From Carboxydocellales bacterium (GTDB taxonomy: Bacteria; Bacillota; GCA-003054495; Carboxydocellales; JAJZTU01): a stretch of DNA of 64,000 nucleotides. Position 1 is the first letter of the stretch. Every line of letters starts with the position of its first letter. The translations under genes and the position numbers were made by a program. The notes under the pieces were generated by a model. That model was not told the DNA's origin. It was given only the letters and a program-made list of their open reading frames with translations, and searched no databases. The stretch spans positions 176,561-240,560 of the forward strand of contig JBAQLS010000003.1 of the NCBI GenBank assembly GCA_049302075.1, in the 5' to 3' direction. Shown here in pieces: positions 2,015 through 47,522 of this stretch.

Positions 2015-4120
2015 TTATCCGGCAGGTTGATATTCCTCAAAATACTGTTTGATTCCTTCAAAAATGGCCTGGGCAAATTTTTCCCGAATTTCCGCCTTGG
2101 CAAGTAAAGCCTCCTCTTCCCGATAGCTTAAATATGCTGTCTCTACTAGAATTGAAGGCATTGTAGTACCTCGCAACACCGAAAAATTTTCCTGTTTGAT
2201 GCCCAAATCTTTTCTACCAACTGCCTTAATCATCTGGTTTTGTACCGCTTGGGCTAACCTGATACGCTCTGGCCCCTGAGCAGCTAACTCAGGGATACTT
2301 GATGGTGCGTAATAATAAGTGGAGGTACCATTAGTCGTAGAATTTTCCGATGCATTAGCATGGACGCTCACAAAAATATCCGCTTTGTTTTCCAAGGCAA
2401 TGGCAGGTCGTTGCGTCAGGGTAATTTTGGTATCATCAGTGCGAGTATAAATTACCCGGTATCCGGCAGATTCCAGCTTTAGTCCCACCCGCTTGCTAAT
2501 ATCAAAAACAACATCCTTTTCCTGAAGCTTGTTCACACCTAATGCGCCAGGGTCAATCCCACCATGCCCTGGGTCAATAGCTACCGTGTGTATAACTTGG
2601 CTATTTCCCGAATTAGTGCCGTTCTGTCCGGTTTCCGACTGAACATCCCCTACTTTACTTTCAGTGGGGACAATAAGCAGCATTCGCTCATTGTCTCCCG
2701 GCTTGGTAAACCATCTAAATCCTGGTTCTAGCTCCAAATTAACCTGAACCGATGTATTATCTCCCTCAACCGCTCCAGTTGATACTTTAACTAAACCATA
2801 TTGTCCTACAGCTATATCCTGAGCATTTCCGGCCAGCTCGGCATCTCTTATTTTAACCACTAATCGATTAGGTTCCGGTTGTTCATTAACTTCATAAACC
2901 AAAGGTTCGCTGCCTAGGATGGTAATTTTGTTTTGTTCTCCGGTGTCGATACCCATTTCCAGACGGTTGGTCTTGCCAATTAATTTAACCAGCCAACTGG
3001 CAACCCAGCCAACCGAACCATCAATGAGCTTAACTTCCAACCAACTTCCATCCTGGCGCAGAGCCTCAACCCGTGTCCCTTGTGCCAGCTTGGTCACAAC
3101 CGCTGTATCTGAACCGGGACCGGAACGAAAATTTACCGTAGGACTACTTATTCTGGCTGGACAGGGCAACTGAATGGTGTCCGCTGCTGAGCTGTCACCT
3201 GTTGTATTAGTGTTACTGTTACCATTATTTTCGATTTCGGTTTCAGTATTGATTCCATTATTTACATTGCCAGTTTCCGGCTTTGTCTGGGAAGGCGTTG
3301 GCACGGCCTTCTCTTGAGTAGTTACCGCAACCAACCAACTAGCTACCCAAACGGTTTGACCCTTATTTAATTTTACTTGATACCAATCCTTTTCCTGCTT
3401 AATAACCTGAAAAGTCTCTCCCTTTTGGACTTTGCCCAGCAAGGCATAACTTGTGGCAGGTCCACTGCGCAAATTGACATAATCTCCCTTGATGGTAGCC
3501 TGTTCACTCCCGGTAGATTGCTGCTTACTATTTGAATCTGCTTTGCCCTGAGCAACAGCCGGCACGGGTTTACTTTGGGTTACTTCAGTAACCAGCCAAC
3601 CTGCTACCCAGCCCGTTTGACCTTTATTTAATTTTACTTGATACCAATCCTTTTCCTGCTTAATAATCTGAATAGTCTCTCCCTTTTGGACTTTGCCCAC
3701 CAAGGTAAAACTTGTGGAAGGACCACTGCGTACATTAACATAATCTCCTTTAACGCTAAGTACATTAGCAGAGACTTTGGTCGCTTTACTTTGGGTACTT
3801 AGTTTAGGTTGGGAGGATACCTGCTTGCTTTTTTCCGGCGCCGGTTTAACTAGCCACCCAGCTACCCAGCCTTTTTGACCGTTACGAAGCTGTATATAGT
3901 ACCACCCTTGGCTTTGTTTAACTATAGAATAAGTCTCACCTAAATATACTTTACTAATCATTTTAGAACTAATATTTGCACTGGAACGAACATTGACATA
4001 TGTACCGGTAACCACAATTCCCCCTGCTGCGTCGGCCTGAGAAGGTATGGCTGCAACCAGTATGCCCATGATAATCATCAAGATGGTAATTATCGCTTTG
4101 CGATATGATAATTTATTCAT
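2015..4120 (-). CDS. Secreted N-acetylmuramoyl-L-alanine amidase (Amidase_3) with N-terminal SH3b repeats
   Basis: Has a signal peptide and repeated GDYVNVRSGPSTS..GWVAGWLV SH3b-type units. The C-terminal catalytic motifs are VAIDPGHGGIDPGA and FVSVHANA. Confidence 0.85.
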   Translation of the reverse strand: MNKLSYRKAIITILMIIMGILVAAIPSQADAAGGIVVTGTYVNVRSSANISSKMISKVYLGETYSIVKQSQGWYYIQLRNGQKGWVAGWLVKPAPEKSKQVSSQPKLSTQSKATKVSANVLSVKGDYVNVRSGPSTSFTLVGKVQKGETIQIIKQEKDWYQVKLNKGQTGWVAGWLVTEVTQSKPVPAVAQGKADSNSKQQSTGSEQATIKGDYVNLRSGPATSYALLGKVQKGETFQVIKQEKDWYQVKLNKGQTVWVASWLVAVTTQEKAVPTPSQTKPETGNVNNGINTETEIENNGNSNTNTTGDSSAADTIQLPCPARISSPTVNFRSGPGSDTAVVTKLAQGTRVEALRQDGSWLEVKLIDGSVGWVASWLVKLIGKTNRLEMGIDTGEQNKITILGSEPLVYEVNEQPEPNRLVVKIRDAELAGNAQDIAVGQYGLVKVSTGAVEGDNTSVQVNLELEPGFRWFTKPGDNERMLLIVPTESKVGDVQSETGQNGTNSGNSQVIHTVAIDPGHGGIDPGALGVNKLQEKDVVFDISKRVGLKLESAGYRVIYTRTDDTKITLTQRPAIALENKADIFVSVHANASENSTTNGTSTYYYAPSSIPELAAQGPERIRLAQAVQNQMIKAVGRKDLGIKQENFSVLRGTTMPSILVETAYLSYREEEALLAKAEIREKFAQAIFEGIKQYFEEYQPAG
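3330..3753. repeat. Near-identical tandem duplication (about 261 bp period) inside the amidase gene, encoding two SH3b units
   Basis: 3330-3492 and 3592-3753 align almost base for base (ttatttaattttacttgataccaatccttttcctgcttaataa...). More diverged copies lie upstream and downstream. Confidence 0.9.
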
Positions 4121-4279
4121 TGTGGACCGCCCCCTGAACTAAAGATATTTTCGGTTCCAATTAGGTTATTTCTACATTAACTGCCAAAATCCTGCCGAAA
4201 CCTTGCCATTTCTGCTTTTGTAACCTTAGACCATAACTCTGGAATCCACTAACAAGGAATTACTACTATTCTGGAACAA

Positions 4280-5385: not shown

Positions 5386-5576
5386 CAGGCTGTTGAAAAA
5401 CCCGTCTAGTGCTAAGCCAGCTATGACCCAATACCCAAGGCGTACTTGCTGTACGTTGAGGATTTTGTCATAGCTGGCGACAAAGCTATCCTGAAAATTC
5501 ATACTTAATTTTCATATACTGTTGGTGCCACGTTAGTGGTATGGATATCTAGACGGGGAATTTCAGCAGCCTGCTG
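5386..5576. other. About 190-nt nested imperfect inverted repeat (structured RNA or MITE-like element) between hppA and the tautomerase gene
   Basis: Outer arms gcaggctgttgaaaaacccgtctag (5386-5410) and ctagacggggaatttcagcagcctgc (5551-5576). Inner arms ccagctatgac and gtcatagctgg. Confidence 0.5.
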
Positions 5577-5585
5577 CTGGATGTT

Positions 5586-7601
5586 TTAAAGACTGAGGAA
5601 TGGAGCAATAATCAGGGAAATAGTACCGGTTACTTTAATTAAGGCATTCAAGGACGGACCAGCAGTATCTTTGAAGGGATCACCTACAGTATCACCAACA
5701 ACTGCAGCTTTATGGGCATCTGTTCCTTTACCGCCAAAATTTCCAGACTCAATGAATTTCTTGGCATTATCCCAGGCACCGCCAGCGTTAGCCATAAAAA
5801 TTGCTAACAGTACACCAGATACAGTTGTACCGGCCAACATACCACCTAAAGCTGCTGCACCTAAACCAAACCCTACAATTACCGGTGTAAGCACAGCTAG
5901 TAAACCGGGAGCTATCATTTGCCTAATCGCAGCCCGGGTACTAATATCTACACAACGGGCATAGTCAGGCTTGCCAGTGCCTTCCATTATTCCAGAGATT
6001 TCCCGGAACTGGCGGCGAACCTCTTCAATCATTTCAAAGGCAGCTTTACCAACAGCTTCCATAGCGAAAGAACAGAAGAGGAAAGGCACGGTTGCACCGA
6101 TAAACAAACCTACCACGATCATCGGATCCAAAAGGTTCAGGACAAAAGCCTCTCCTCCGTTTGCCGACATAAATTTTTCTGCATAAGCATTGAACAAAGC
6201 TAAAGCAGTCAGCGCTGCGGATCCGATGGCAAAACCTTTAGCTACGGCAGCAGTGGTGTTACCAACAGCATCCAGCTTATCTGTTTGCTTACGAACTTCC
6301 GGACCAAGTTCTGCCATTTCGGCAATACCGCCGGCATTGTCGGCAACCGGCCCGAAGGAGTCAATTGCTACCACCATTCCAGCAGTACATAACATTCCCA
6401 TAGCCGCCATGGCAATACCATAGATGCCAGCGAAATAGTGGGAAATCATGGTTGCAGCTAGGATAACGATAATCGGTCCAGCAGTACTGCGTAAACCAGT
6501 GGCCAGTCCACTGATGATGTTAGTTGCCGCACCAGTTAAAGAAGCTTCAGCAATTTTTTGGGCAGGGGGTTTTAAGTTGGAAGTGTAATATTCGGTAATA
6601 AAACCAATGGCTACGTTAACAAGTAATCCACAGACGATGGAAACGAAAACTCCCACTGCCAACTTGGAATCAGCAGCACCGAACATTAGCTGAGCAGCGA
6701 ACCAGGCGCCAATAGCAGTAATTAGGTTGGTTCCCCACAGGCCTTTATTCAAGGCCGCTTGGGGGTTACCGTTCGGAGCCATGCGCACAAAGAAACTAGC
6801 AATTATTGAAGCAACCAAACCAAGGGCTCCAATCAACAGCGGAAATACTATGGCATTTTCCTGAAGAACACCCTTAAAAACAGTATAACCAATCAGCATT
6901 GCTGCTATGGTAGTGGCAGCATAAGATTCGTATAGGTCAGCACCCATACCTGCAATATCCCCTACATTATCGCCCACATTGTCGGCTATAACCGCAGGGT
7001 TCCGGGGATCATCCTCAGGAATACCAGCTTCTATTTTACCTACCAAGTCTGCACCTATGTCAGCAGCTTTGGTATAAATACCACCGCCAACCCGGGCGAA
7101 CAATGCAATTGCACTGGCACCGAAAGCGAAGGGGTCAATATATTCAGGATTAGGGAAAAAGTAATACAATACAGCCACACCAAACAAACCCAAACTAGCT
7201 ACAGACATTCCCATGACCGCACCGCTTTGGAAGGCCACACCAAGACCCTTGTCCAGGCCCTGGATACAAGCTTGGGTGGCCCGAGCATTAGCTTTGGTAG
7301 CAATGGTCATACCTACATAACCAGCAACTGCTGAGAAAACGGCACCTACTAAAAAAGCTATAGCCGCCATGTATGTATGTTTAGAAAAAAATAAAGCCAC
7401 AAATATAATAGCTGTAAACGGAATTAAAGTTCTATACTGGCGGTTAAGAAAAGCCATGGCCCCTTCAAAAATAGCTTGGGAAAGTTCTTTCATCCGTTCT
7501 GTTCCCTGGTCTTTCTTTAGCACACTAACGGCTGAATAAGCTGCGAATAATAACCCCAAAAGACTCGCTCCAAAAGAAATCCATAGTACAAACGACGTCA
7601 C
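5586..7601 (-). CDS. hppA: Membrane-bound ion-translocating pyrophosphatase
   Basis: 671 aa polytopic protein with [17 protein letters not shown] and [11 protein letters not shown] signature motifs. Confidence 0.95.
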
Positions 7602-7629
7602 TTAATTTCGCCCTCCTCTTCCTTTTAAC

Positions 7630-7866
7630 TTACTTAAATAGCGCTAAAAAAATTGCTGATAGCAAAAATCCGATAGCTATAAAAGTAGTTAGTTTATGCA
7701 AAAGTTCGTCTAGCCCCTTTTTCTTGCCAAAAAAGGTTTCTGCTCCACCTGCAATCGCCCCGGATAGACCGGCACTCTTTCCAGATTGGAGAAGAACTGT
7801 GGCAATTAAACCAAGGGACAATAATACATGGAATACTGTGATACTACCTTTCAGCACTCTTATCAC
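7630..7866 (-). CDS. secG: Preprotein translocase subunit SecG
   Basis: About 75 aa with two TM segments and the LLQSGKSAGLSG motif. The GTG at 7857 is the more likely start (GGAGGTGA RBS). Confidence 0.85.
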   Translation of the reverse strand: MIRVLKGSITVFHVLLSLGLIATVLLQSGKSAGLSGAIAGGAETFFGKKKGLDELLHKLTTFIAIGFLLSAIFLALFK

Positions 7867-8093
7867 CTCCTGATTCCCATTTTAATCCACACAATGTTGA
7901 TATTATAGCACAGAGCTATCAAAAAAACAATAAATATCGTTTACTTCCGGACAAGGTTTAGTTAAGATTTCGTTAATGATTTGGGGAAAGTAAAGCCGAT
8001 GTTACTATTCAAGTTTACCGTTTTGTCCTTCGATATTAATAGCATGGCGAAAAATAAATTATTACTAACTTTAATTTAAAAGGAGAGAATTTA

Positions 8094-8525
8094 ATGCGAA
8101 AAGTTCTAATAGCCACCGACGGTTCTAGGTACTCTGATAAAGCGATGAAAACAGCTAAAGACTTACTCAGACTGAATACTAACTTAGATATCACCATCCT
8201 TTGTGTAACTGAAATTCCTAACAACCTGTTTAACCTGAATAATCCGGATATAACTCTGGCTAGTTTTGAATATTCCTCTGCCGAGGCAGTAAATAAGCTT
8301 CTGGCCTCAGCTGCGGAATTTTTTACCATGGATGGATTGCAGGTGCGAACTATTAGTAAATATGGTCACCCCGCAACAGTAATCTGTGAAATGGCCCAGT
8401 ATGAGGGCTTTGACTTAATTGTGGTAGGGAGCAGGGGGCTTGGTGCAGTACAAGGCTTATTTATGGGTAGTGTAAGTAGTAAAGTGGCCCATATGGCCAC
8501 TTGCCCAATTCTAATTGTCAAATAA
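8094..8525 (+). CDS. Universal stress protein (UspA family)
   Basis: 143 aa; KVLIATDGS N-terminus and GSRGLG....GSVS C-terminal ATP-binding motif. Confidence 0.85.
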   Translation: MRKVLIATDGSRYSDKAMKTAKDLLRLNTNLDITILCVTEIPNNLFNLNNPDITLASFEYSSAEAVNKLLASAAEFFTMDGLQVRTISKYGHPATVICEMAQYEGFDLIVVGSRGLGAVQGLFMGSVSSKVAHMATCPILIVK

Positions 8526-8547
8526 GTCTAATCATACCCGGGGTTTT

Positions 8548-9231
8548 TTAGTGCTTAGACTTAACTGGAGTTCGGTTAACAAACCCGCGGTAGACTATAT
8601 AAGTAAACATTGCAGCCACAAGGGCGAAGGCTAAGTAAATCGCCCAGGTCTTACCCCGGCTTAAGTTATAACCTAAAGTAGTATACAAAAAAGCCCACGG
8701 TAACTTACCAATAGCTGTTGCCGAAGCAAAGTCCGAAAATCTAACCTTACTAATTCCAGAGATAATACTCACTGCCACCGAAGGTACTACGGGAATTAAC
8801 CTGCAACCACAAATTGCCAGAAAACCTTTTTCATTTGTATAACAAAAATCCCAACCTCTTTTTAACAACCACCGTTGGACAAACTCCTTGCCAAGATATC
8901 TGGCTATTCCAAAGGTAGCACACGCACCTAAGACCCCAGCAGACCAAATAATCAGCAAACCCATAAACATCCCATATAGAATTCCGGCAGCTCCGGCTAA
9001 TAGAAAATATGGAATTATCGGAATAGCACCTTGCAAAAAACCCAATCCGAATATAACCAGCGGTGCCCCAACTGGAAAGGAGCGAATAAAGCTCACCAGG
9101 TGGGGCAATTCTGTTTTTAACGCTCTTAATCTCAGCAACTCACCGGAGAACAGCTTCCAGCCTAATAAAATTAATAAAATTACCACCAATGTAACGGCTA
9201 ATCCATGTTTTTCGCTAAACTTATACTTCAT
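8548..9231 (-). CDS. TVP38/TMEM64 (DedA/VTT-domain) membrane protein
   Basis: 227 aa polytopic protein with a pattern typical of the SNARE-associated/VTT family. Confidence 0.65.
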   Translation of the reverse strand: MKYKFSEKHGLAVTLVVILLILLGWKLFSGELLRLRALKTELPHLVSFIRSFPVGAPLVIFGLGFLQGAIPIIPYFLLAGAAGILYGMFMGLLIIWSAGVLGACATFGIARYLGKEFVQRWLLKRGWDFCYTNEKGFLAICGCRLIPVVPSVAVSIISGISKVRFSDFASATAIGKLPWAFLYTTLGYNLSRGKTWAIYLAFALVAAMFTYIVYRGFVNRTPVKSKH

Positions 9232-9315
9232 TTTGTTTTAGCTTCCTTTTGGGATTGCCTCCGAACGCTTTATTAAAAACAGTATTCCCCAAAACAATTC
9301 CCAATATTGCTCAAC

Positions 9316-9849
9316 CTATAGTTTCAGTCTCATATCTTCAATCCGGCCTTTACTTTTTTCCAAGAAACCTTCTGAGGCCTGTAACTCATCCAAAATCTTA
9401 TTTAGAGTACTGCTTTTCGGATTAGGCTCCTGAAGTACTTTTTTTAGTTTGTTAATATTCTGTTGTTTAAGATAAAGGCTGGTAGAGAGTTCTCCCTTGA
9501 TCTCCTCTAGTATCCCTTGGGTCGGTATCGCCTCTAACTGATCCATAAGTTGTTTAGTTTGACCTTCAACCTTTTCAACTTCAGCAATGGCTTGCTGCAC
9601 ATTTATTTCAGCATAACCATACTTATTTACGATAGCCCTAGTTACTTTGTGTAGTTCCTCGGCCTTTTGCACCAGTGGTAGAACCGCTTTCACAAAATCG
9701 CCAGTAGCTTGCTTATCCACATTTGTTTTCGGAACCTTTACTGAGCTTTTTCCTCCTGAAGTCTTGGAACCTGAGCCACAGCCACTAGCGCCATTTGCTA
9801 TAAATATAATTATCAACATTAACCCTATTACTTTGAACCCATTTCTCAT
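9316..9849 (-). CDS. Hypothetical lipoprotein, coiled-coil rich
   Basis: Signal peptide with a lipobox (GASGCGS); no recognisable catalytic motif. Confidence 0.5.
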   Translation of the reverse strand: MRNGFKVIGLMLIIIFIANGASGCGSGSKTSGGKSSVKVPKTNVDKQATGDFVKAVLPLVQKAEELHKVTRAIVNKYGYAEINVQQAIAEVEKVEGQTKQLMDQLEAIPTQGILEEIKGELSTSLYLKQQNINKLKKVLQEPNPKSSTLNKILDELQASEGFLEKSKGRIEDMRLKL

Positions 9850-9966
9850 TTCCTATCCCCCATTCCCAGACTAGCATAAAAAAACCACAAATAAGAATAT
9901 TCGACAAAAAATCGAATTATCCTTCCTGTGGCAAATGAGAAACAGTTCCAATACTTTGTTAACTAT

Positions 9967-10602
9967 TTATTCTTCATCACCTTGTTCTCTGGATGCAAAT
10001 TCTGCTTCGCTGCCTAGATTACTGCCTAGATTACCGGGATTATCGTTTGTTGAGCTTTCCTCTTCGCAATCGTCCCTATCGAAATCATCAGTTGAGTTAC
10101 CCTCGTTCTCTCCATCTTCCTCTGCTTCGTCCTCCATTAAAACACTAGACGGATAAGCAACAACCACAAGTTTTGCTTCCCCAATTATTTCGACAGTGAA
10201 TGCTGTTACAATTCCCAGCTTAATATTTTCTCCGGTTATCCCAACTACACGGCAGGTAGGCTCTAGCCGTTCACAAACTACAACTTCTTCATCTTTCTCC
10301 AGTCGCCCCTCAAATTCACCAACAACTATTTGTTCATTGTACTCAAAGCTGTGTTTACAAAGGTCAGTCTTGCTATGTTCCTCATAAGAGTACCAAACCG
10401 TCACCTCGTATTTTCCGGTAATAACTACACTGTCGTGGAATGTTTTAGCTGAATACTGATGATTACCTACCCAATAGCCCAAAATGTGCTCCGGTCTATG
10501 GTCCGGTCTGATTTGGTGATCTTTGACAAACTTCTTCTTGCCTTTGGCACAGACGGTCTTGGCAATAATTTCCCTGATTTCTCCCTCATATTCCTGATGC
10601 AT
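9967..10602 (-). CDS. cotE: Outer spore coat morphogenetic protein CotE
   Basis: The N-terminal two thirds align by eye to B. subtilis CotE (EII.K.V.AKG.K.F...ILG.W..NH.Y.A....V.I.G.Y.....WYSY) and are followed by an acidic C-terminal tail. Confidence 0.75.
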   Translation of the reverse strand: MHQEYEGEIREIIAKTVCAKGKKKFVKDHQIRPDHRPEHILGYWVGNHQYSAKTFHDSVVITGKYEVTVWYSYEEHSKTDLCKHSFEYNEQIVVGEFEGRLEKDEEVVVCERLEPTCRVVGITGENIKLGIVTAFTVEIIGEAKLVVVAYPSSVLMEDEAEEDGENEGNSTDDFDRDDCEEESSTNDNPGNLGSNLGSEAEFASREQGDEE

Positions 10603-10699
10603 AATAGACTTTCCCTCCTTAATATCCGAAAAGCTGTTCCACCTCTTTTATCATATGCGTTGGGCAGTTTATCGGTAACAATTTACCTAAACTTTTTTC

Positions 10700-32761: not shown

Positions 32762-33712
32762 ATGGTCAAATTATCCTCAAAACTTCCCCTACTCAAGCCC
32801 ATGTTAGCTGTAATGGGGGAGCCTTTTGATTCATCCGACTTTCTTTTCGAGATTAAATGGGATGGAATCCGTTGCTTGGCCTATTTAACTGAGGAAACAG
32901 TACTCTATAGTAGGAACAGCAATGATATAACCCAACGCTACCCGGAACTATCTAACCTCCATCATAAACTCCAGGGAGTGCCAATGATTCTAGATGGGGA
33001 GATTGTGGTCTTTGAAAGGGATAAACCTTCTTTTCACCGGTTGTTGACCCGAAACAGAATGACTAACAATTACCGGATTGGTCAGGCCGCAGCCCAATAC
33101 CCAGCTGTTTTGATGGTTTTTGACCTTTTATACTATCAAGGGAAAAGCCAATTACACCTACCCCTGCGGGAAAGAAAAAAATTATTAGCTGATGTAGTTG
33201 TCCCCACAGCGAATTTGAGACTGAGTGAATATGTGCAAAATGAGGGTGTGGAATTTTATCAAGCTATTTGCCGGCTAGAATTAGAGGGTATGGTAGCCAA
33301 GAAACTGGACAGTCAGTACCTACCCGGCAAACGTTCCCACAGCTGGCACAAGATTAAGCGTATCCAGGAAGAATACCTGATTATCTGCGGCTATACCAAA
33401 GGGAAGGGTCAGCGGCAAAGCCTAGGCTCACTTATTTTAGGTGGCTACCGGGGGGAATGTTTAATTTATGCCGGACAGGTAGGGTCTGGTTTTAGCCAGT
33501 CCGGTGTGGAGGAAATTAAACAACTCCTCCAGCCCCTAAGCAGAGCGGAAAGCCCCTTAGAACACTATCCCTCGTTGCCCCAAGCCCTTTGGGTGGAGCC
33601 GAAATTGGTGTGTACGGTAAAGTTCCTGGAACGGACAGAAAACGGCGAGATTCGGCATAGCAGCTTCACCGGGCTGAGGCCGGATAAAGAGCCGGGGGAG
33701 TGCCAATTATGA
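32762..33712 (+). CDS. ligD: ATP-dependent DNA ligase (LigD ligase domain only)
   Basis: Adenylation motif I KxDG (EIKWDGIR); 316 aa. Confidence 0.9.
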   Translation: MVKLSSKLPLLKPMLAVMGEPFDSSDFLFEIKWDGIRCLAYLTEETVLYSRNSNDITQRYPELSNLHHKLQGVPMILDGEIVVFERDKPSFHRLLTRNRMTNNYRIGQAAAQYPAVLMVFDLLYYQGKSQLHLPLRERKKLLADVVVPTANLRLSEYVQNEGVEFYQAICRLELEGMVAKKLDSQYLPGKRSHSWHKIKRIQEEYLIICGYTKGKGQRQSLGSLILGGYRGECLIYAGQVGSGFSQSGVEEIKQLLQPLSRAESPLEHYPSLPQALWVEPKLVCTVKFLERTENGEIRHSSFTGLRPDKEPGECQL

Positions 33713-33806
33713 TTGAACTGGGGTGCCAGGTGTAGGTCTGTTTTTGCTGTTCTGTCTGGGTGTGGTTTTAGTGGTCTATGTCTGGGTAGCAGTCCAAGCT
33801 TTGTAA

Positions 33807-34010
33807 CCGGTCGGACACCTGTCCAGGTTTGGAGCTCTTAGTTCCATACCGTGCAGATCTAAGCACAGGTGGTCTAATAAAACCGACCAACCTGGACAAT
33901 ACGGCGTCCATGCCTAGATGTCCAGGTTGGTCAATTCAGTTAGCGAGCTGGAACTTAGAACTGCACGGATAAAGCGCAGAACGCCCACACCGGACAGGTA
34001 CTCTGACCGG
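33807..34010 (+). repeat. Long-hairpin repeat, copy C (same family as 43289-43593 and 46321-46848)
   Basis: Termini are ccggtcggacacctgtcc and ggacaggtactctgaccgg. There is a perfect 14-bp inner stem, gaccaacctggaca/tgtccaggttggtc. It shares gctcttagttccata, ctaataaaa and the loop core CGTCCATG with copy A. Confidence 0.85.
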
Positions 34011-34041
34011 AGATTAATTCTTAGAAAGGAGCAAACAAATA

Positions 34042-34944
34042 ATGGATAAAATTGTGCAAATCGACAACCGGGAGCTTAAGTTAACTAATTTGGACAAACA
34101 GTACTGGCCGGAAGGGTACACAAAAGGAGACCTCCTGGCCTATTATGCTCAGGTGGCCCCCATACTACTGCCCTATATAAAAGACCGTCCCCTAACCATG
34201 AAACGCTATCCAAATGGCATAGAGGGTCACTTTTTCTACCAGAAGGAATGCCCTGAATATGCTCCGGAGTGGATTCGCACCACACCTATACCCTCCGACG
34301 ATCAGGAAAAGGTTACTAACTATATCCTAATTGAAGATCAGGCTTCACTGATGTGGGTTATTAACCAAGGCTGTATTGAGGTACACTGCCCGCTCTCCAC
34401 TGTGGACAGCCTCCAGTCTCCTAACTTGGCTATCTTTGACCTGGACCCTGCTGAGCCGGCCAACTATGATGATGCTATTGACCTAGCCTTGCTGATTAAA
34501 GCTGCAATGCAGGAGTTTGGCTTACAGTTATTTCCGAAAATTTCCGGAGCAACCGGGCTGCATATCCTGCTGCCCCTTAACCCAATTTATACCTATGCTG
34601 AAGTCAGGACAGCCCTACTGTTCATCTGCGAACTAATTGTCAGCCACCATCCTCAGAAAGCAACCTTGGAGCATCGGGTTAAAGACCGGACAGGTAAGGT
34701 TTATCTGGATTATCTGCAAAATGCCTGGGGTAAAAACATGGCCTGGGTGTACAGCCTACGGCCGGAGCCTGGCGCCCCTGTCTCCTGCCCCTTGAGTTGG
34801 GAGGAAATAGAGCAGGGCCGGTTAAAACCCGGGGATATCAATATTACCAACCTAACTGAACGCTTGCAGCAAGTGGGGGAGCTTTATGCCGGTATGCTTA
34901 ACCTTAAACAGGAGCTTAAACCGATTTTGGATTTGGTTAACTGA
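34042..34944 (+). CDS. LigD polymerase/primase domain protein (AEP family)
   Basis: DxD motif (IFDLDP) and SGxxGLH motif (ISGATGLHILLP). Confidence 0.9.
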   Translation: MDKIVQIDNRELKLTNLDKQYWPEGYTKGDLLAYYAQVAPILLPYIKDRPLTMKRYPNGIEGHFFYQKECPEYAPEWIRTTPIPSDDQEKVTNYILIEDQASLMWVINQGCIEVHCPLSTVDSLQSPNLAIFDLDPAEPANYDDAIDLALLIKAAMQEFGLQLFPKISGATGLHILLPLNPIYTYAEVRTALLFICELIVSHHPQKATLEHRVKDRTGKVYLDYLQNAWGKNMAWVYSLRPEPGAPVSCPLSWEEIEQGRLKPGDINITNLTERLQQVGELYAGMLNLKQELKPILDLVN

Positions 34945-42535: not shown

Positions 42536-42776
42536 AAAAACCCTGGAAGATAATTCCTCCAGGGCATAGGTCAGCAGAAAAACGCCAAACACAGCAAAAA
42601 CATTGCTGTACGTTGTTCCTTCTCCCATCCAGACTTTAACTGTCGGCTTCGGAATTGCTGAGCCTATTGCTAAGCTCTCGCTCACCGAATCTGCCCTTGC
42701 GGGCTTGCGGGCTCGGCTGTTGACCAATGGTCTGCAGCCTTACCGCCGGTACGGAATTACACCCGTCCCTGAAGGA
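42536..42776 (-). promoter_or_regulatory. FMN riboswitch (RFN element) with terminator, controlling ribDE(BA)H
   Basis: The minus strand reads tccttcagggacgggtgtaattccgtaccggcggtaa...gattcggtga...ccgaagccgacagttaaagtctggatgggagaagga, with P1 tccttc/gaagga (aptamer 42617-42776). The terminator hairpin ccctggag..ttccaggg plus T-run lies at 42536-42566. Confidence 0.9.
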
Positions 42777-42957
42777 TTTATATTTATAAGTTAATTATGG
42801 ATAATTATAAACTAGGACAATAGTAATTGTCAAATGAAAGCCATGCAAAGAAATTGGGCATTTGGCGGAGCACCCTCAAGCTTTAAATACCATATGTTAA
42901 ACTACACAGAAGTCTGTGCTTAAAAAAAAATACTGTGGATAACAGGAGGAACTAATT

Positions 42958-43248
42958 ATGTGGCGACAAATGTACGGTGATATGAACCCAACGTCTGGGA
43001 TGAGTGGTGCACAAGGTGGAATGTCCATGATGGGCGGTTCTATGAACCCCATGATGCATGGAGGAATGTGTATGCCTCCCATGCACCACATGATGCCCAT
43101 GCATTGCATGAAGCCCATGCACCATATGATGCATCCAATGATGTGCTGTATGCCCATGATGCATCCAATGATGATGCATAAACCCATGATGCATCCAATG
43201 ATGTGCTGCCTGATGATGTGCTGCAAACCCATGAAGCATCATTGTTGA
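42958..43248 (+). CDS. Small hypothetical protein of extreme Met/His/Cys/Pro composition (candidate metal-binding or spore-associated protein)
   Basis: 96 aa with AGGAGG 8 nt upstream of the ATG. My count of the given translation is 35 Met, 12 His, 12 Pro and 9 Cys. It contains PMMHPMM(CC) repeats. No signal peptide or TM segment. Confidence 0.6.
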   Translation: MWRQMYGDMNPTSGMSGAQGGMSMMGGSMNPMMHGGMCMPPMHHMMPMHCMKPMHHMMHPMMCCMPMMHPMMMHKPMMHPMMCCLMMCCKPMKHHC

Positions 43249-43288
43249 GTACTGAAACTCCGGTCAGCCTTTGTAGGTTACTGAGCCT

Positions 43289-43593
43289 CCGGTCGGATCC
43301 ATGTTTCATTTGGGGTCATTATGACCGGTCGGATACCTATTCCGGCAAGGCGCTCTTAGTTCCATACTCTAGTAGCTCTAAAGCTCTGCATACTAATAAA
43401 AGCACCCTAAACCTCGCCGATTCATCGTCCATGATTCAGCGGCGAGGCGGCCACTGTCATAAGGGTGGCCGGGGTGCTTTTATTGCATGCCGAGCTTAAG
43501 TGCTGCTACGGTACTCCACCATGAGCGCCTTCACCGGAACAGGTATCCGACCTGGTATTATGCATGTCTACGGGGAACAGGTATCCGACCTGG
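43289..43593 (+). repeat. Long-hairpin repeat, copy A (left boundary of the 43.3-46.85 kb cassette)
   Basis: Two nested pairs of termini: ccggtcggatcc (43289) pairs with ggtatccgacctgg (43593), and ccggtcggatacctattccgg (43325) pairs with ccggaacaggtatccgacctgg (43555). The three-way core at 43398-43481 has two hairpins, CCTCGCCG/CGGCGAGG and GGCCAC/GTGGCC, closed by AAAGCACCC/GGGGTGCTTT. Confidence 0.85.
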
Positions 43594-43667
43594 GTCAGCA
43601 CCCGGGGGTCTTAGGTGCGGGCTGGGAGTGGCTGTGTAGACAGGGGCATGACCCCAGAGGACCTAAG

Positions 43668-43753
43668 CGCCGGGGACCGGAATCGAACCGGTACGGGCGA
43701 TGAAGCCCGCAGGATTTTAAGTCCTTTGCGTCTGCCAGTCTCCTGCAAACCGC
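43668..43753 (-). pseudogene. tRNA-Leu(UAA) remnant; 3' about 73 nt intact, 5' acceptor/D-stem strand replaced
   Basis: The minus strand reads ..gactggcagacgcaaaggaCTTAAAAtcctgcgggcttcatcgcccgtaccggTTCGATTccggtccccggcg. It has the anticodon loop, a long variable arm, the T-arm and the 3' acceptor strand. The 13 nt where the 5' strand should be (gcggtttgcagga) cannot pair with ccccggc. Confidence 0.7.
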
Positions 43754-43897
43754 TAATAATAAGGGTTTACCCTTCGTGTATGTATTTAAGATTACAGGAT
43801 TTGAAAACGTCTGAATGTGATTTAGTGATAATCCTGTATGGTAAAAATATCAAAGTCTGTAGGAATAAGCGACAGAACAATAGTTATGTATTCGTTC

Positions 43898-44329
43898 CTA
43901 TGAAGGTTGACTGTTTAATATTCTGCTTTTTACATCTACAACTTCAGATAGAATTAAATTCTTTAGTAACGCATGACGTTCTTTTAAAAACTCCACAAAT
44001 TCATTATCATATTCACCATTAATTAGCTTATCTGAATTTGGAATTAATTGTGATTCCATAGAATGCATCTAAATCAAATGACTCTTTCAGAGCGATGTTT
44101 TCCATGAGCTTACAGTCGTCAACAATAACATCATTGGTTGAACCAGTCATACCCCCACCGTATCGATTGTTAAGAAGTGAGCCCCAAAACCAAAACTTGA
44201 ATAGTTTTCTTGTCTTTGCGTTCTTTGACTAAAATCTTTAGAAGGCAAATGCTTAAGAAAATGCATCATTGGGATAAACATAGTCTTGTAGGGTAACCAT
44301 TTAATACTTATCAATAATTTTTCAGACAT
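43898..44329 (-). pseudogene. Frameshifted remnant of a larger gene (three collinear reading-frame pieces)
   Basis: Manual translation of the minus strand gives three pieces. They are MSEKLLISIKWLPYKTMFIPMMHFLKHLPSKDF.., then (frame shift) FWGSLLNNRYGGGMTGSTNDVIVDDCKLMENIALKESFDLDAFYG.., then (frame shift) DKLINGEYDNEFVEFLKERHALLKNLILSEVVD... There is no RBS or intact frame. The family assignment (possibly DUF262-type C-terminal region) is only a recollection. Confidence 0.5.
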
Positions 44330-44462
44330 TAAAAACTTATAAGTTTTAGCACTGCTGAAATATCTTAATACTTACATATGAACAAATAAAAAAGAGGAGG
44401 AAAATACCCCCTCTATGTATAACCATAAAATTCAACCTTACGCCTCAAAAAGCCAATAGTTC

Positions 44463-45467
44463 CTATTTAAGCTCATTTGCATATACATAAGAAATAATCT
44501 CTCTATAAGGAGTCTCAATCCACCCTTTTTCTTCATGTGAAAACTCTGAGATTTCGCTCGCATTATAATGTCCGTACCTTTGCTTCACTTGTTCCAAAAC
44601 CGCCATTTCCTCTGCAGTAAAAATATCCGGGTCAAATTCTGCTAAGGGTTGAATTATATCGCCAGAATGTACATAAACTTGAGATGGATTAAGGGTTATA
44701 TATCCCAATTTCTCTAAATGCCATAACAGTCCTTCAAAATCTTGTGGAACAGGTCCGTAATCCAACTTAATATATTTCAATCCAGTTACAGAAATCGTAA
44801 AGTCTTTGAAGAAACTGAAGTCAGTATAAAATAAAAGCTTATTTAACTTTGTTTTCCATAAGTCATTCACATTTTGTGCGAAATATAGAACAGTGTTGAG
44901 AACCTTTTGAAAATCTATTTGTTTGAATCCAGATTCAATATTTATAAATGAATACTCAAGCTTTCTTTGTAAAAGATATACGAAGCTATCCTCTTCCTTT
45001 TCTTCAATTATGGACTCTATTTTAGCCATCGCTTTTTTGTAAGTGGAACTTGGTATCAAATTTTTCGCCTCAACTAAAAAATCCTTCATTATTTCAGGGT
45101 TTTGCAACAATTTTAGCAATCTATGATGAGCTTCATTTGGAATTGCACCAGTTTCATATCTATGAATTGTAATTGCTCCCCACCCTAAAACTTTACCAAG
45201 TGTCCTTTGCGACAATCCATATCTTTCTCTAATTTCACCGATGTCTTTAGGCGACATATAAGAATGGCGTTTTCTATATTCATCATATGCTTGTTCTAAA
45301 TTCTCCTCCTCCAAAGCCATATCTAACAACTCATTTCCACAAAGGCAAACCCGAATAGTCGATTCGACTTCAATATCTTCCCCCCTAACCGTAATTACCT
45401 CGTTCTTCTTAAGAATTGTGCTTTCTTTCTCTCCGCACTTTTCGCATACTATAGTATTTGCCATCAT
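44463..45467 (-). CDS. Tripartite antitoxin candidate: MqsA-like zinc ribbon + XRE-type HTH + C-terminal Panacea (DUF4065/SocA-like) domain
   Basis: CxxC...CxC zinc ribbon (CEKCGE..VCLCGN). The HTH segment is YGLSQRTLGKVLGWGAITIHRYETG. The C-terminal KLNKLLFYTDF....G......YGPVP pattern is typical of DUF4065. Strong RBS AGGAGGAGG. Confidence 0.7.
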   Translation of the reverse strand: MMANTIVCEKCGEKESTILKKNEVITVRGEDIEVESTIRVCLCGNELLDMALEEENLEQAYDEYRKRHSYMSPKDIGEIRERYGLSQRTLGKVLGWGAITIHRYETGAIPNEAHHRLLKLLQNPEIMKDFLVEAKNLIPSSTYKKAMAKIESIIEEKEEDSFVYLLQRKLEYSFINIESGFKQIDFQKVLNTVLYFAQNVNDLWKTKLNKLLFYTDFSFFKDFTISVTGLKYIKLDYGPVPQDFEGLLWHLEKLGYITLNPSQVYVHSGDIIQPLAEFDPDIFTAEEMAVLEQVKQRYGHYNASEISEFSHEEKGWIETPYREIISYVYANELK

Positions 45468-45501
45468 GCGAATCCTCCTCCTAACTTAAACCTCCTGAAT
45501 T

Positions 45502-45867
45502 CTATTTGTATGGATAATGGTTAGGTCTCTCTGCAATGTGAAATGATATGCACACGCAAAAGTCCCCACCACTGTTATCCTCTATCTTTATTTTTATCTG
45601 GAACTCATAACCATCAATATTAAAACCAAACAAGAAATAGTCTCCTGGTGGAAATCTTGTGTCACGCTCTGCTTCCGGCCCGCACAAATAATCCTTGTAG
45701 GTTAGACCAAGTATATATTCCTTAATATGACTTGGTTTTAAACCTACCCTTGACAACGAAGCTATATTCTTTTTTCTTTCCTCAAACCTAAATTGTTCCT
45801 GAGTAAAAGCTTGTTTTATCCTTAACAGGAAGCCATTAATTTCACCAATGGGTATCTTGTTTCCCAT
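45502..45867 (-). CDS. MqsR-like toxin candidate (121 aa from the ATG at 45867)
   Basis: The pattern LTYKDYLCGPEAE...GDYFLFG....G.EFQIKIKI......CVCISFH resembles the MqsR family pattern as I recall it. The GAGGTGA RBS sits before the internal ATG. The toxin-first gene order matches mqsR-mqsA. Confidence 0.6.
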   Translation of the reverse strand: MGNKIPIGEINGFLLRIKQAFTQEQFRFEERKKNIASLSRVGLKPSHIKEYILGLTYKDYLCGPEAERDTRFPPGDYFLFGFNIDGYEFQIKIKIEDNSGGDFCVCISFHIAERPNHYPYK

Positions 45868-45898
45868 GCAATCACCTCGCTTTGGTATTCCTATTTTC

Positions 45899-45948
45899 AT
45901 TATATACCATAACAAGGCAATATGAAAGCTATTTGTTATCATATGATA
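45899..45948 (-). promoter_or_regulatory. Candidate promoter and operator of the toxin-antitoxin operon
   Basis: The minus strand has TTTCAT-N17-TATAAT (-10 at 45899-45904). A perfect 12-bp palindrome TATCATATGATA lies at 45937-45948, just upstream. Confidence 0.4.
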
Positions 45949-46320
45949 GCATATTTTTGCCCTTTTTATACATGAGTTTTACAATTAAGTTCAAATGGGT
46001 TTATCTATTTATTCTCATATTACGGGGATAATATCTATTCCAATTGCTGAACATGTGTTCTGATAATGAGATGAAACCTCTACTTGTTCATACGGTGTTA
46101 TTGGATTCCGCTCTGTTAAAAAACTACCCCCATGCATTAATGCCTTTCAAGGAAAAGCAGATTTAGTAATACTGCCCCACCTATAATCTCTTAATGCCCG
46201 GCTTAGGACTACCAAAAGGTAAAGATTTTAACAGACCACAATATTAAATAATCAAATATGCATTGCGTAAAAACAAATTCCAAGGTTCACAGTTAGCGAA
46301 AGCCTTGGAATGCTTATGTT

Positions 46321-46848
46321 TGTAAGCCGGTGTCGGATAAGGTACACCTAGCTCGGTTCGGGTGAAAGTTATTTAGCCCACAAGCCAGTAATGTGGCTTG
46401 GTGGGCTTATCAGCTAATCCGGGTATACCTGTCCGGCCCAAGTCAAGTGCCGGCCTATGTCAAAGCTGTACCGTTCAGCTCAAGGCTGATTACTGGTCTT
46501 CCGACTCAAGTAACCTGCTTGCAGCTGTCGGCCAGGCTGAATGCAGCCCTTACTACCAGGTCGGGTGCCAGTGCCGGTTAAGGTACACATGGCTTCGTGC
46601 CATAGTAGCTGTTAGTGAAAGTGGGCAATAGAAAGCACCCCGGCCACCAAGGATGGTGGCCGCCTCGCCGCTGAGACAAGGACGTCGATCACCACAAGGG
46701 TACCCCGTATCCGTACGTCGTTGTACTCCTACGGCTACGTCGTCGGCGAGGTTTAGGGTGCTTTCTATTAGCCCACTAAACTTACAGCTACTAAGGTAGA
46801 TAGCTAAGTGTACCGGACCGGCACTGGCACCCGACCGGTCATAAAGAC
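46321..46848 (-). repeat. Long-hairpin repeat, copy B (inverted relative to copy A) plus adjacent partial copies
   Basis: A roughly 287-nt hairpin at 46555-46841 has arms accaggtcgggtgccagtgccgg and ccggcactggcacccgaccggtc. Its core at 46632-46766 has the same two stems as copy A in reverse-complement orientation. 46321-46547 holds further terminus-like motifs (ccggtgtcggataagg, ccgggtatacctgtccgg). Confidence 0.85.
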
Positions 46849-46868
46849 CACAAATTAAGCCTAGATAG

Positions 46869-47522
46869 TTACCGGCAGACCTCACGCAGGGCTCGGACAG
46901 CCCCCCCGATATCCGGCGCATTAAAAATCGCTGACCCAGCAACCAGAATATTAGCCCCGGCCTGGCAGATTTCCTTAGCGTTTTCCGAGTTTACCCCGCC
47001 ATCCACCTGGATATCAAAGTTAAGTCCCCGTGCTTCCCGCATACTGCGCAGTGCTTCCAGCTTAGGGATTATCTGGCGGATAAACTTTTGGCCGCCAAAG
47101 CCGGGGTTAACACTCATTAATAACACCATATCCACCTCATTCAGGATATACTCCAAAGTGGTCAGGGAGGTTGCCGGGTTTAGCGCTACTGCGCACTTTA
47201 TTCCTAGCTCCCGGATATTCTGGATGGTCCGATGCAGGTGGGGACAGGTTTCTACATGCACACAAAGCAGGTCAGCACCGGCTTTGGCAAAATCCATAAG
47301 ATAGCGATCAGGCTGTTCAATCATTAAATGGACATCAAAAACCAGCTTGCTTTTTTCCCGTAAAGCCGCTACTACTAATGGACCGATTGTTATGTTAGGC
47401 ACAAAATGCCCGTCCATCACATCAATATGCAAATACTCCGCTCCGGCTTGTTCAACTTGGGAGATGCTGGCTGCCAAGCTGCTAAAATCTGCGGATAATA
47501 TGGAGGGGGCCAGCTTAATCAT
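46869..47522 (-). CDS. rpe: Ribulose-phosphate 3-epimerase
   Basis: 217 aa with canonical APSILSADF...HIDVMDG.FVPN sequence. Confidence 0.95.
   Translation of the reverse strand: MIKLAPSILSADFSSLAASISQVEQAGAEYLHIDVMDGHFVPNITIGPLVVAALREKSKLVFDVHLMIEQPDRYLMDFAKAGADLLCVHVETCPHLHRTIQNIRELGIKCAVALNPATSLTTLEYILNEVDMVLLMSVNPGFGGQKFIRQIIPKLEALRSMREARGLNFDIQVDGGVNSENAKEICQAGANILVAGSAIFNAPDIGGAVRALREVCR

Follow-up and report, generated by a model that had tools for sequence, protein, structure and literature searches.

The segment described here occupies the gap between a small Met-rich ORF and rpe in a 64-kb stretch of DNA (64,000 nt, hereafter the window), and it consists of two related repeats, A and B, with a tRNA fragment, a broken ORF, a toxin-antitoxin (TA) operon and further pieces of repeat between them (Table 1). 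The A-B interior is compositionally foreign, with a GC content of 0.29-0.39 over positions 43750-46300 versus about 0.48 in the flanks. The original prediction had described this interior as AT-rich and as made up of accessory or decayed items, and both points held, as the tRNA-Leu remnant, the frameshifted ORF, the TA pair and the partial repeat copies were all confirmed. It had also placed the segment between the Met-rich ORF and rpe, which is correct as to position, but the Met-rich ORF does not belong to the conserved backbone: it has no homology to relatives and no Pfam or NCBIfam match, and it sits within the lineage-specific segment, outside the A-B pair.

Table 1. Features of the rpe-rib gap and the third repeat copy, in window coordinates
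Feature	Position	Strand	Remarks
Met/His/Cys/Pro-rich small ORF, 96 aa	42958..43248	+	From the ORF list; AGGAGG upstream
Repeat A	43289..43593	+	Plus is the element orientation used; the TwoAYGGAY-sense strand would be the opposite one
GC-rich spacer with small hairpin	43594..43667		3' of the tRNA fragment; GC 0.59
tRNA-Leu(UAA) fragment, D-loop to 3' acceptor strand	43668..43747	-	
Frameshifted ORF remnant	43898..44329	-	From the ORF list
Intrinsic-terminator-like hairpin and T-run	44393..44414	-	Downstream of the antitoxin gene
Antitoxin, 334 aa, MqsA zinc-ribbon/HTH fused to SocA/Panacea	44463..45467	-	
Putative toxin, 121 aa, distant MqsR-family member	45502..45867	-	Upstream of the antitoxin
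Promoter-like site TTCATA-16-TATAAT	45899..45926	-	Upstream of the toxin gene; consensus match only
Partial/degenerate repeat copies	46326..46550		Short hairpin first, then more fragments
Repeat B	46555..46875	-	
Repeat copy C	33797..34016	+	Third and most decayed copy of the family

As had been proposed, A and B belong to one family and are inverted relative to each other. In a blastn search of the window with A, two blocks of B were matched, both on the opposite strand (E 4.5e-19 and 8.8e-18, ~73% identity), and the family HMM scored A at 247 bits on the plus strand versus 76 on the minus strand, and B at 230 bits on the minus strand versus 76 on the plus strand; the end matches quoted earlier for the two copies are also real in the sequence. 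The overall identity of A and B is 69.8%, with a longest identical run of 22 nt (column identity in a MAFFT alignment, 74%), and copies in a different genome are just as close, at 73% for A versus L017a and 74% for B versus L018. Each repeat folds into a single long hairpin whose tip is branched (-165 kcal/mol for A and -187 kcal/mol for B; z = -12.8 and -14.1, respectively, versus dinucleotide shuffles). Within A, an inner hairpin element of 233 nt (43324-43556) is enclosed by an outer hairpin shell (43289-43323 and 43557-43593), giving A doubled ends, and the hexamer ATTATG abuts the inner element on both sides (43318-43323 and 43557-43562), which could be a target duplication. The inner element of B measures 285 nt (46555-46839), and one of its tip hairpins carries an insertion of 53 nt; its neighbours at the possible duplication are TTTATG and AGTAAG, and its 36-nt left extension (46840-46875), homologous to the outer shell of A, supplies the stop codon of rpe (46869-46871). 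Since this 36-nt outer extension is common to the two copies and one hexamer is similar in both (ATTATG/TTTATG), A and B may come from one compound ancestor and not from independent insertions. The short hairpin at the start of the partial copies (46326-46450) contains GGTATACCTGTCCGG and duplicates part of the arm of B.

The family is dispersed well beyond this locus. Besides three full copies in the window (A, B and C), it was found at at least eight sites on seven contigs of the MAG SKS3.bin89 and at one site in another MAG. L038 and L046 contain short derivatives made up of the ends only, and additional solo ends lie next to full copies. Its members are non-coding, 220-300 nt long, bordered by terminal inverted repeats and palindromic over their whole length; the conserved termini are CCGGTCGGATACCTGTCCCGG, and the conserved ends CCGGTCGGRYRCCWRT on both arms have six matches in the window, where none was expected. 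In the family alignment (79 pairs), 93.2% of the cells are paired, and compensatory double changes occur in 42 of the 79 pairs, whereas shuffles gave 20.7 ± 2.6 and slid controls 8-10. Copies in the related MAG retain 73-79 Watson-Crick pairs of 79 (77-79 in four of five), and the window copies have 8-25 mismatched pairs; in copy C, which has lost one hairpin, Watson-Crick pairs make up only 35 of the 60 scored. C occupies a spacer with the Ku-ligase genes on one side and the LigD Prim-Pol gene on the other; this spacer is 330 nt long here and 33 nt long in the relative L005, and B is missing from the rpe loci of all relatives compared. Thus, the family behaves like a MITE, being short and non-coding with terminal inverted repeats, multi-copy and dispersed, with conserved termini, strong covariation and presence or absence at orthologous sites, and by these features A and B would be old, decayed members of it. 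No flanking repeat was seen at copy C or at the relatives' copies, no autonomous partner with the same ends around an ORF was found in the window or the other loci examined, and no transposase domain was found in the tested window ORFs or next to the relatives' copies, so that we infer the mobility of the family from its distribution only.

The new point of this work is the link of this repeat family to TwoAYGGAY, an orphan RNA motif (RF01731; Weinberg et al. 2010, PMC2864571) whose closing stem P1 is often very large, as its discoverers noted (PMC2864571). Membership of RF01731 is set by the Rfam gathering score of 43 bits, and three copies in SKS3.bin89 (L010 and two in L017) match the model end to end with 51.5, 51 and 48 bits; the L018 copy reaches 42.3 bits. 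By model score and sequence, the intact relatives of A, B and C in the related MAG are TwoAYGGAY RNAs. The window copies gave no match to RF01731 even at E<=10, and the family HMM finds both these and the copies positive for RF01731 (E 1e-43 to 1e-69), so that, judged by this homology and the alignment, they are diverged and decayed relatives of bona fide members. The covariation of the long P1 stem, far above both controls, is also as in TwoAYGGAY. On the motif strand, the loops read AUGGAC and a degenerate AUGACA in A, AAGGAU and AAGGAC in B, and AUGGAC in the single hairpin of C, so that none of the three carries two AYGGAY loops.

Such a link could also mean that A and B are functional TwoAYGGAY small-RNA genes, for example CsrA-titrating ones, whose position near the island is accidental and which contribute nothing to its mobility or structure. 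The homologues that pass the gathering score, the strong covariation and the GGA apical loops kept in A and B are consistent with this, and a CsrA-binding hypothesis has been published for the motif (PMC4333381). Nevertheless, we consider it unlikely, as all three window copies fail the model, one loop of A is degenerate, B has its insertion and C lacks a hairpin, and the high copy number, truncated derivatives and nested ends suggest a repeat element. Moreover, the counts of G-U pairs (22) and A-C mismatches (15) show no clear preference for the former and give no strand signal, and intact copies are almost purely Watson-Crick; thus, a DNA palindrome fits better than an RNA under selection.

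Regarding the interior, the tRNA-Leu fragment scores 32.6 bits to the Rfam tRNA clan, below threshold, and can be aligned with the last 68 nt, at the 3' end, of an authentic tRNA-Leu(taa) in L027; because 16-18 nt of its 5' end are missing, it is non-functional. ARAGORN called no gene at this site and no tRNA gene in the 64-kb window. A tRNA-targeted integrative island was considered and rejected, as there is only this 5'-truncated tRNA-Leu and no intact tRNA in the window; no direct repeat of the fragment was found at the far edge, and no integrase domain in the ORFs tested or the stitched ORF remnant. This remnant consists of three pieces in two frames (~146 aa when stitched), with no Pfam match for the pieces or the stitched sequence. 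The TA operon is intact, with its own promoter-like site and terminator-like hairpin, and is predicted to encode an MqsR-like toxin and an MqsA-Panacea antitoxin, in agreement with the pair named in the original prediction. The antitoxin matches PF15731 (4.6e-11), PF13274 (2.1e-17) and TIGR03830 (96.5 bits), and its nearest homologues are at most 60% identical. The putative toxin itself has no Pfam match and was assigned via its homologues, three of six of which match PF15723 (MqsR); it is 55% identical to the ORF preceding the homologous antitoxin in L050. As in a type II TA system, an antitoxin with MqsA and Panacea domains adjoins a small conserved partner gene, and in another MAG the same two-gene module stands by itself, flanked by minE and rodA.

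The relatives (Rpe 69-83% identical) have neither the interior nor the repeats at the rpe-ribD gap. Homology to them stops at about 42842, where the -35 box of the rib promoter lies, and resumes at 46872, with the last sense codon of rpe. The right junction is exactly B's outer end, close to which the backbone had been said to resume, and the suggested comparison with related genomes showed the interior to be absent from them, but the left edge of the lineage-specific DNA lies about 450 nt outside A. In five relatives, rpe and ribD are neighbours with differing cargo between them, namely a histone-deacetylase-family (Hist_deacetyl) gene alone, this gene with an agr cassette, this gene with Fur, or znuABC, Fur, ArsP and DUF1980. 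Since the relatives carry different genes there, the gap is a variable hotspot. Even the closest of the genomes compared share only ~80% DNA identity with the window, too little to order or count the events.

The inverted geometry had led to two earlier suggestions, a composite mobile unit and an invertible or recombination-prone segment, and neither is supported. In a composite MITE-bounded transposon, a transposase encoded elsewhere and acting on the outward-facing ends of the two repeats would have moved the 3.6-kb block, TA operon included, into the rpe-rib gap; the copies are indeed inverted with the same end outward on both sides, the right backbone junction falls at the outer end of B, the low-GC foreign cargo is confined between the copies, the family looks mobile, and MITE-bounded composites have been documented in other bacteria (PMC13367494). 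However, the bracketing copies are not near-identical but diverged (69.8% identity, with the 53-nt indel) and are decayed hairpins, the left backbone junction is displaced from A, and the outer flanks show no direct repeat (left, ctgagcct; right, cagacctc) and thus no target duplication around the unit. Interior sequence was not found elsewhere in the window or in the other loci examined, and the absence of a transposase or integrase, noted from the start, was upheld for the ORFs tested within ~15 kb; beside the relatives' copies there was likewise no transposase. In addition, L017 in the related MAG has the same outward-facing inverted (tail-to-tail) pair between convergent genes with a spacer of only 80 nt, so that the inverted geometry needs no cargo to explain it. 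Nothing shows that the A-B block moves as one unit, and we regard the composite transposon as quite improbable. Homologous recombination between A and B that flips or deletes the interior appears highly improbable, even with inverted homologous repeats ~3 kb apart: ~70% identity and a longest perfect match of 22 nt fall below the usual needs of RecA-dependent exchange, no site-specific recombinase gene was found among the ORFs tested within ~15 kb, and no promoter or gene is placed so that inversion would switch expression. We can offer only as a doubtful speculation that TwoAYGGAY elements are mobile DNA palindromes, outward inverted pairs of which, such as A/B here and the L017 pair, are functional units that take up and carry foreign DNA like this TA island via an enzyme recognising either the CCGGTCGGATACC termini or the twin loops (GUCCRU/AYGGAY).

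The explanation we prefer, with a probability of roughly 0.6, is that the segment is a mosaic of independent events and not one mobile cassette, with the TA operon kept through addiction. It would have accumulated in the gap that separates the rpe-rsgA-prkC operon from the riboflavin operon and is variable among relatives. Elements of the family seem to sit preferentially just past gene ends, although only seven of nine full-length copies with readable neighbours have the same orientation as the adjoining gene. A and B would be tail to tail because one came to lie after the Met-rich ORF (plus strand) and the other after rpe (minus strand); the arrival of B may have taken away the last rpe codon and given a new stop codon. 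The ~2.7 kb of low-GC DNA between them was probably acquired horizontally, the truncated tRNA-Leu would most simply be the scar left by an island after integration at a tRNA gene or recombination with one, and the TA operon probably persists because it is addictive or useful in defence, with the remainder decaying around it. A repeat-bounded unit would look alike too, since the right edge lies at the end of B to the base and the low-GC DNA fills precisely the interval bounded by the inner ends of the two repeats. Viewed as a cassette, the locus is nothing unusual: a gap that varies among strains and has collected repeats and a TA island. The useful by-product is the repeats: in this lineage, the TwoAYGGAY motif behaves as a proliferating, decaying palindromic repeat, which is a concrete and testable alternative to the proposed CsrA-sponge role, and at rpe such an element rewrites the 3' end of an essential-pathway gene.

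Compared with known systems, the TA operon shares with MqsR/MqsA and Panacea type II systems the toxin-first gene order, the MqsA zinc-ribbon/HTH domain, the Panacea (DUF4065) domain on the antitoxin and the occurrence of the two-gene module alone in unrelated contexts (PMC8832971), whereas its antitoxin fuses MqsA and Panacea domains and its putative toxin is too diverged for direct detection by Pfam MqsR. With TIME-COMPs and integron mobilisation units (PMC13367494), the locus shares two small non-autonomous elements bracketing accessory cargo, but the copies here are 30% diverged, with no flanking duplication and no sign of the unit elsewhere. The A/B family resembles bacterial MITEs and ERIC, Correia and REPIN-type repeats (see also PMC3184786, PMC11602168) in being short, non-coding and intergenic, in its terminal inverted repeats and whole-length hairpin, in its many copies per genome with deletion derivatives, and in its insertion beside gene ends; it differs from MITEs in having no identified parent IS or transposase and no consistent target-site duplication, and its conserved three-way tip with twin loops is untypical of IS-derived MITEs. 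With TwoAYGGAY RNA, the intact homologues of A, B and C share the very long closing stem P1, the two apical hairpins and apical loops reading AYGGAY on one strand, whereas the window copies, with one or both loops altered, fail the model. The published TwoAYGGAY descriptions examined contained no repeat-like behaviour. In contrast, the A/B family reaches ~35 nt further on each side than the Rfam model, with conserved termini, and is multi-copy, nested, truncated and variably present between genomes.

We put the probability at about 0.6 that a mosaic has formed in the variable rpe-ribD gap, in which old TwoAYGGAY-type repeats (Rfam RF01731) lie behind two convergent genes with a decayed acquired fragment between them. 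When the rib-to-rpe interval was compared, prkC-rsgA-rpe and then ribD were found to be kept in the contigs of all relatives (Rpe 69-83% identical). The gap between them holds a histone-deacetylase-family (Hist_deacetyl) gene alone in loci L001 and L005, this gene with an agr-type cassette and other ORFs in L006, the same gene with Fur in L051, and znuABC, Fur, ArsP and DUF1980 in L052. The hairpin repeat is absent from all five of these loci. Rpe and the antitoxin of the window both have 100% identical counterparts in an NCBI MAG that bears the label Carboxydocellales bacterium. The L006 gap (5463-10654, MAG SKS3.bin89) was found to contain an agr-type quorum-sensing cassette, made up of a LytTR regulator, a 43-aa ORF, AgrB and a histidine kinase, together with an M10 peptidase.

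In nucleotide alignments with relatives, the right break falls just after the last sense codon of rpe (...TGCCGG), past which the relatives read GAATAG and the window reads TAACTATC..., the extension of repeat B; thus, the stop codon of rpe, which lies within the first bases of this extension, is supplied by the repeat. At 46869-46875, the window rpe lacks the final Glu codon that is present in the two nearest relatives (L001 and L005). The left break, at about 42842, coincides with the -35 box of the promoter for rib, and the lineage-specific DNA covers 42842-46871, Met-rich ORF included. The original prediction had the backbone resume within about 20 nt of the outer end of B and took A and B as the bounds of a cassette. 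The right junction does coincide exactly with the B end, but the left edge could not be upheld, because the lineage-specific DNA begins about 450 nt outside A. The Met-rich ORF, which consists of nearly nothing but Met, His, Cys and Pro (MHHMMPMHCMKPMHHMMHPMMCC...), matched no family and is absent at the rpe-ribD locus in relatives; its product may be a metal-binding peptide, since the relatives' gap carries Fur or znuABC.

Features of the locus and of the third repeat copy (window positions)
Feature	Position	Strand	Details
Repeat copy C	33797-34016	+	third window copy of the family
FMN riboswitch	42613-42780	-	86 bits, ahead of ribD
FMN riboswitch/rib promoter	42833-42804		TTGACA-18-TATAAT; marks left edge of conserved backbone
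Met-rich ORF	42958-43248	+	96 aa; strong RBS
Repeat A, outer hairpin	43289-43323 and 43557-43593	+	encloses inner element; A is compound
Repeat A, inner element	43324-43556	+	nested in short outer hairpin
tRNA-like stretch	43668-43747	-	32.6 bits, under threshold
Three ORF pieces	43898-44329	-	two frames
Terminator of toxin-antitoxin operon	44414-44393	-	
Antitoxin	45467-44463	-	334 aa; MqsA and Panacea domains
Putative toxin ORF (locus tag WA118_01430)	45867-45502	-	121 aa
Promoter-like site of toxin-antitoxin operon	45926-45899	-	
Degenerate shorter hairpin and more fragments	46326-46550		
Repeat B, inner element	46555-46839	-	
Repeat B, left extension	up to 46875	-	36 nt; homologous to outer shell of A

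The predicted homology and inverted orientation of A and B were borne out by blastn, pairwise alignment and a family HMM. A matched B on the reverse strand of the window in two blocks (blastn, E 4.5e-19 and 8.8e-18), and 74% of the aligned columns are identical, with a 53-nt insertion in B. Because each copy is itself nearly palindromic, orientation was checked with the HMM, which gave A 247 bits on the plus strand and 76 on the minus strand, and B 230 on the minus and 76 on the plus. Each folds into one long hairpin with a three-way junction at its tip (-165 kcal/mol for A and -187 kcal/mol for B; z = -12.8 and -14.1). The GC content of the repeats is 0.52-0.59, the family ends are CCGGTCGGATACCTGTCCCGG, and six instances of the end motif GGTCGGRYRCCWRT were counted in the window vs. 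0 expected. ATTATG immediately flanks the inner element of A on both sides. Copy C, with about 85 nt of unexplained sequence, occupies 33712-34042 in a Ku-ligase-primpol cluster, between the genes for the ATP-dependent ligase and the LigD Prim-Pol, where the corresponding spacer in L005 is 33 nt; empty-site alignment did not define the exact ends of C, as the intergenic regions, at about 80% identity, have diverged too far.

The DNA between A and B had been described as AT-rich and as holding a tRNA-Leu remnant, a frameshifted gene remnant, an MqsR-like/Panacea toxin-antitoxin pair and further partial repeat copies, and all of these were recovered. Its GC content is 0.29-0.39 at 43750-46300 vs. 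about 0.48 outside. ARAGORN reported no tRNA anywhere in the window; the tRNA-like stretch aligns with 68 nt at the 3' end of an authentic tRNA-Leu(taa) and retains, in order, the D-loop, the anticodon loop CUUAAAA, a long variable arm, the T-arm and the 3' acceptor strand, the 5' acceptor strand being absent. No att-type direct repeat of this fragment was found at the opposite end of the low-GC stretch. The frameshifted ORF had no family match in Pfam, either as pieces or stitched, and the interior DNA had none among plasmids. The toxin-antitoxin operon looks intact, with a promoter-like site, two ORFs and a terminator. The putative toxin had no direct match in Pfam, NCBIfam, PADLOC or PDB sequences and is tied to MqsR through homologues only, three of six of which match Pfam MqsR_toxin. 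In L050, a locus in an unrelated MAG, the ORF that comes before the homologous antitoxin shares 55% identity with this putative toxin; the closest antitoxin homologues reach at most 60% identity. In L050 (5512-7011), the homologous toxin/MqsA-Panacea pair stands alone between minE and rodA, which shows that the pair moves as an independent module.

The original prediction proposed that A and B carried the interior as a composite mobile unit, which we consider improbable, although the exact fit of the B end to the backbone junction, the confinement of low-GC DNA between A and B, and the outer extension common to both would suit it. Identity between A and B is 69.8%, which does not exceed that of A with L017a (73.4%) or of B with L018 (74.4%), copies in a different genome; thus, the two are not recent duplicates of a single active element. 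No direct repeat was found at the outer flanks, no interior sequence recurs elsewhere in the window or in the loci compared, and no transposase or integrase domain was found in the interior or in the nine neighbouring ORFs tested. The face-to-face geometry also arises without cargo, as in L017: of the nine full-length copies with readable neighbours, seven run in the same direction as the gene after whose 3' end they lie; hence, a pair placed behind convergent genes points inward. That the segment between A and B inverts, the other proposal, is highly implausible at this identity, with a longest identical run of 22 nt. An integron-like attC array was rejected, as the copies are inverted rather than co-oriented and IntI is absent. 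In the mosaic that we prefer, palindromic repeats would have settled behind the two convergent genes, the decayed fragment between them would have been horizontally acquired, and the toxin-antitoxin module would probably account for its persistence.

Collections were scanned with patterns for the repeat ends. In the genome scan, made with the left-end pattern, real members occurred only on contigs of SKS3.bin89, the assembly to which L006 also belongs, and of one other MAG, the remaining matches being chance ones in high-GC genomes. Metagenome contigs gave 0 matches to the strict end pattern and 23 to a loose one, all chance by HMM; viral contigs gave 0 and plasmids none. In the full-length hairpins on these MAG contigs, 73-79 of 79 pairs are Watson-Crick (77-79 in four of five copies). 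When nine copies were aligned, 93.2% of cells proved to be paired, and compensatory double changes affect 42 of the 79 pairs vs. 20.7 +/- 2.6 in shuffles and 8-10 in slid controls. Mini-hairpins of about 60 nt on two contigs (L038 1985-2048 and L046 2575-2637), built solely from the two element ends, are internal-deletion derivatives, and the outer shell of A is of the same type; additional solo ends adjoin full copies in L010 and L018. In L017, from a related MAG, two convergent genes enclose an intact tail-to-tail TwoAYGGAY-type pair (3612-3838, plus; 3918-4144, minus) whose members are separated by an 80-nt spacer. The sequence of this spacer also begins contig L025 (1-58), adjoining another copy, and for this reason the pair with its spacer may itself be a repeated unit. 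Outside the hairpin, about 45 nt past the right end, L017a, L018 and L010 share a conserved flank (...ATTTTCnGnGnGGTA...TCATG), which lies upstream of the motif on the AYGGAY strand and may serve as a promoter or belong to the element.

A, B and C gave no RF01731 match, even at E<=10. In A, one tip loop is kept as AUGGAC and the other reads AUGACA; the loops of B read AAGGAU and AAGGAC, B also bearing its insertion, and C has lost one hairpin. The count of G-U pairs (22) does not clearly exceed that of A-C mismatches (15), and there is thus no evidence as to which strand, if any, is selected as RNA. The relatives' copies match RF01731 over the whole model length at 51.5, 51 and 48 bits (gathering score 43), on the strand whose conserved tip loops read AYGGAY. 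The discoverers described TwoAYGGAY as a motif with a pair of AYGGAY loops, in which the P1 stem is frequently very large, and reported it from Clostridia, gamma-proteobacteria and gut metagenomes (PMC2864571 and supplement). According to one published proposal, the motif binds CsrA (PMC4333381); no CsrA gene was found in the window. A 2025 preprint still regards the motif as relatively unexplored. The locus itself is ordinary, and the point of interest is the connection between this MITE-like family and the orphan TwoAYGGAY motif.
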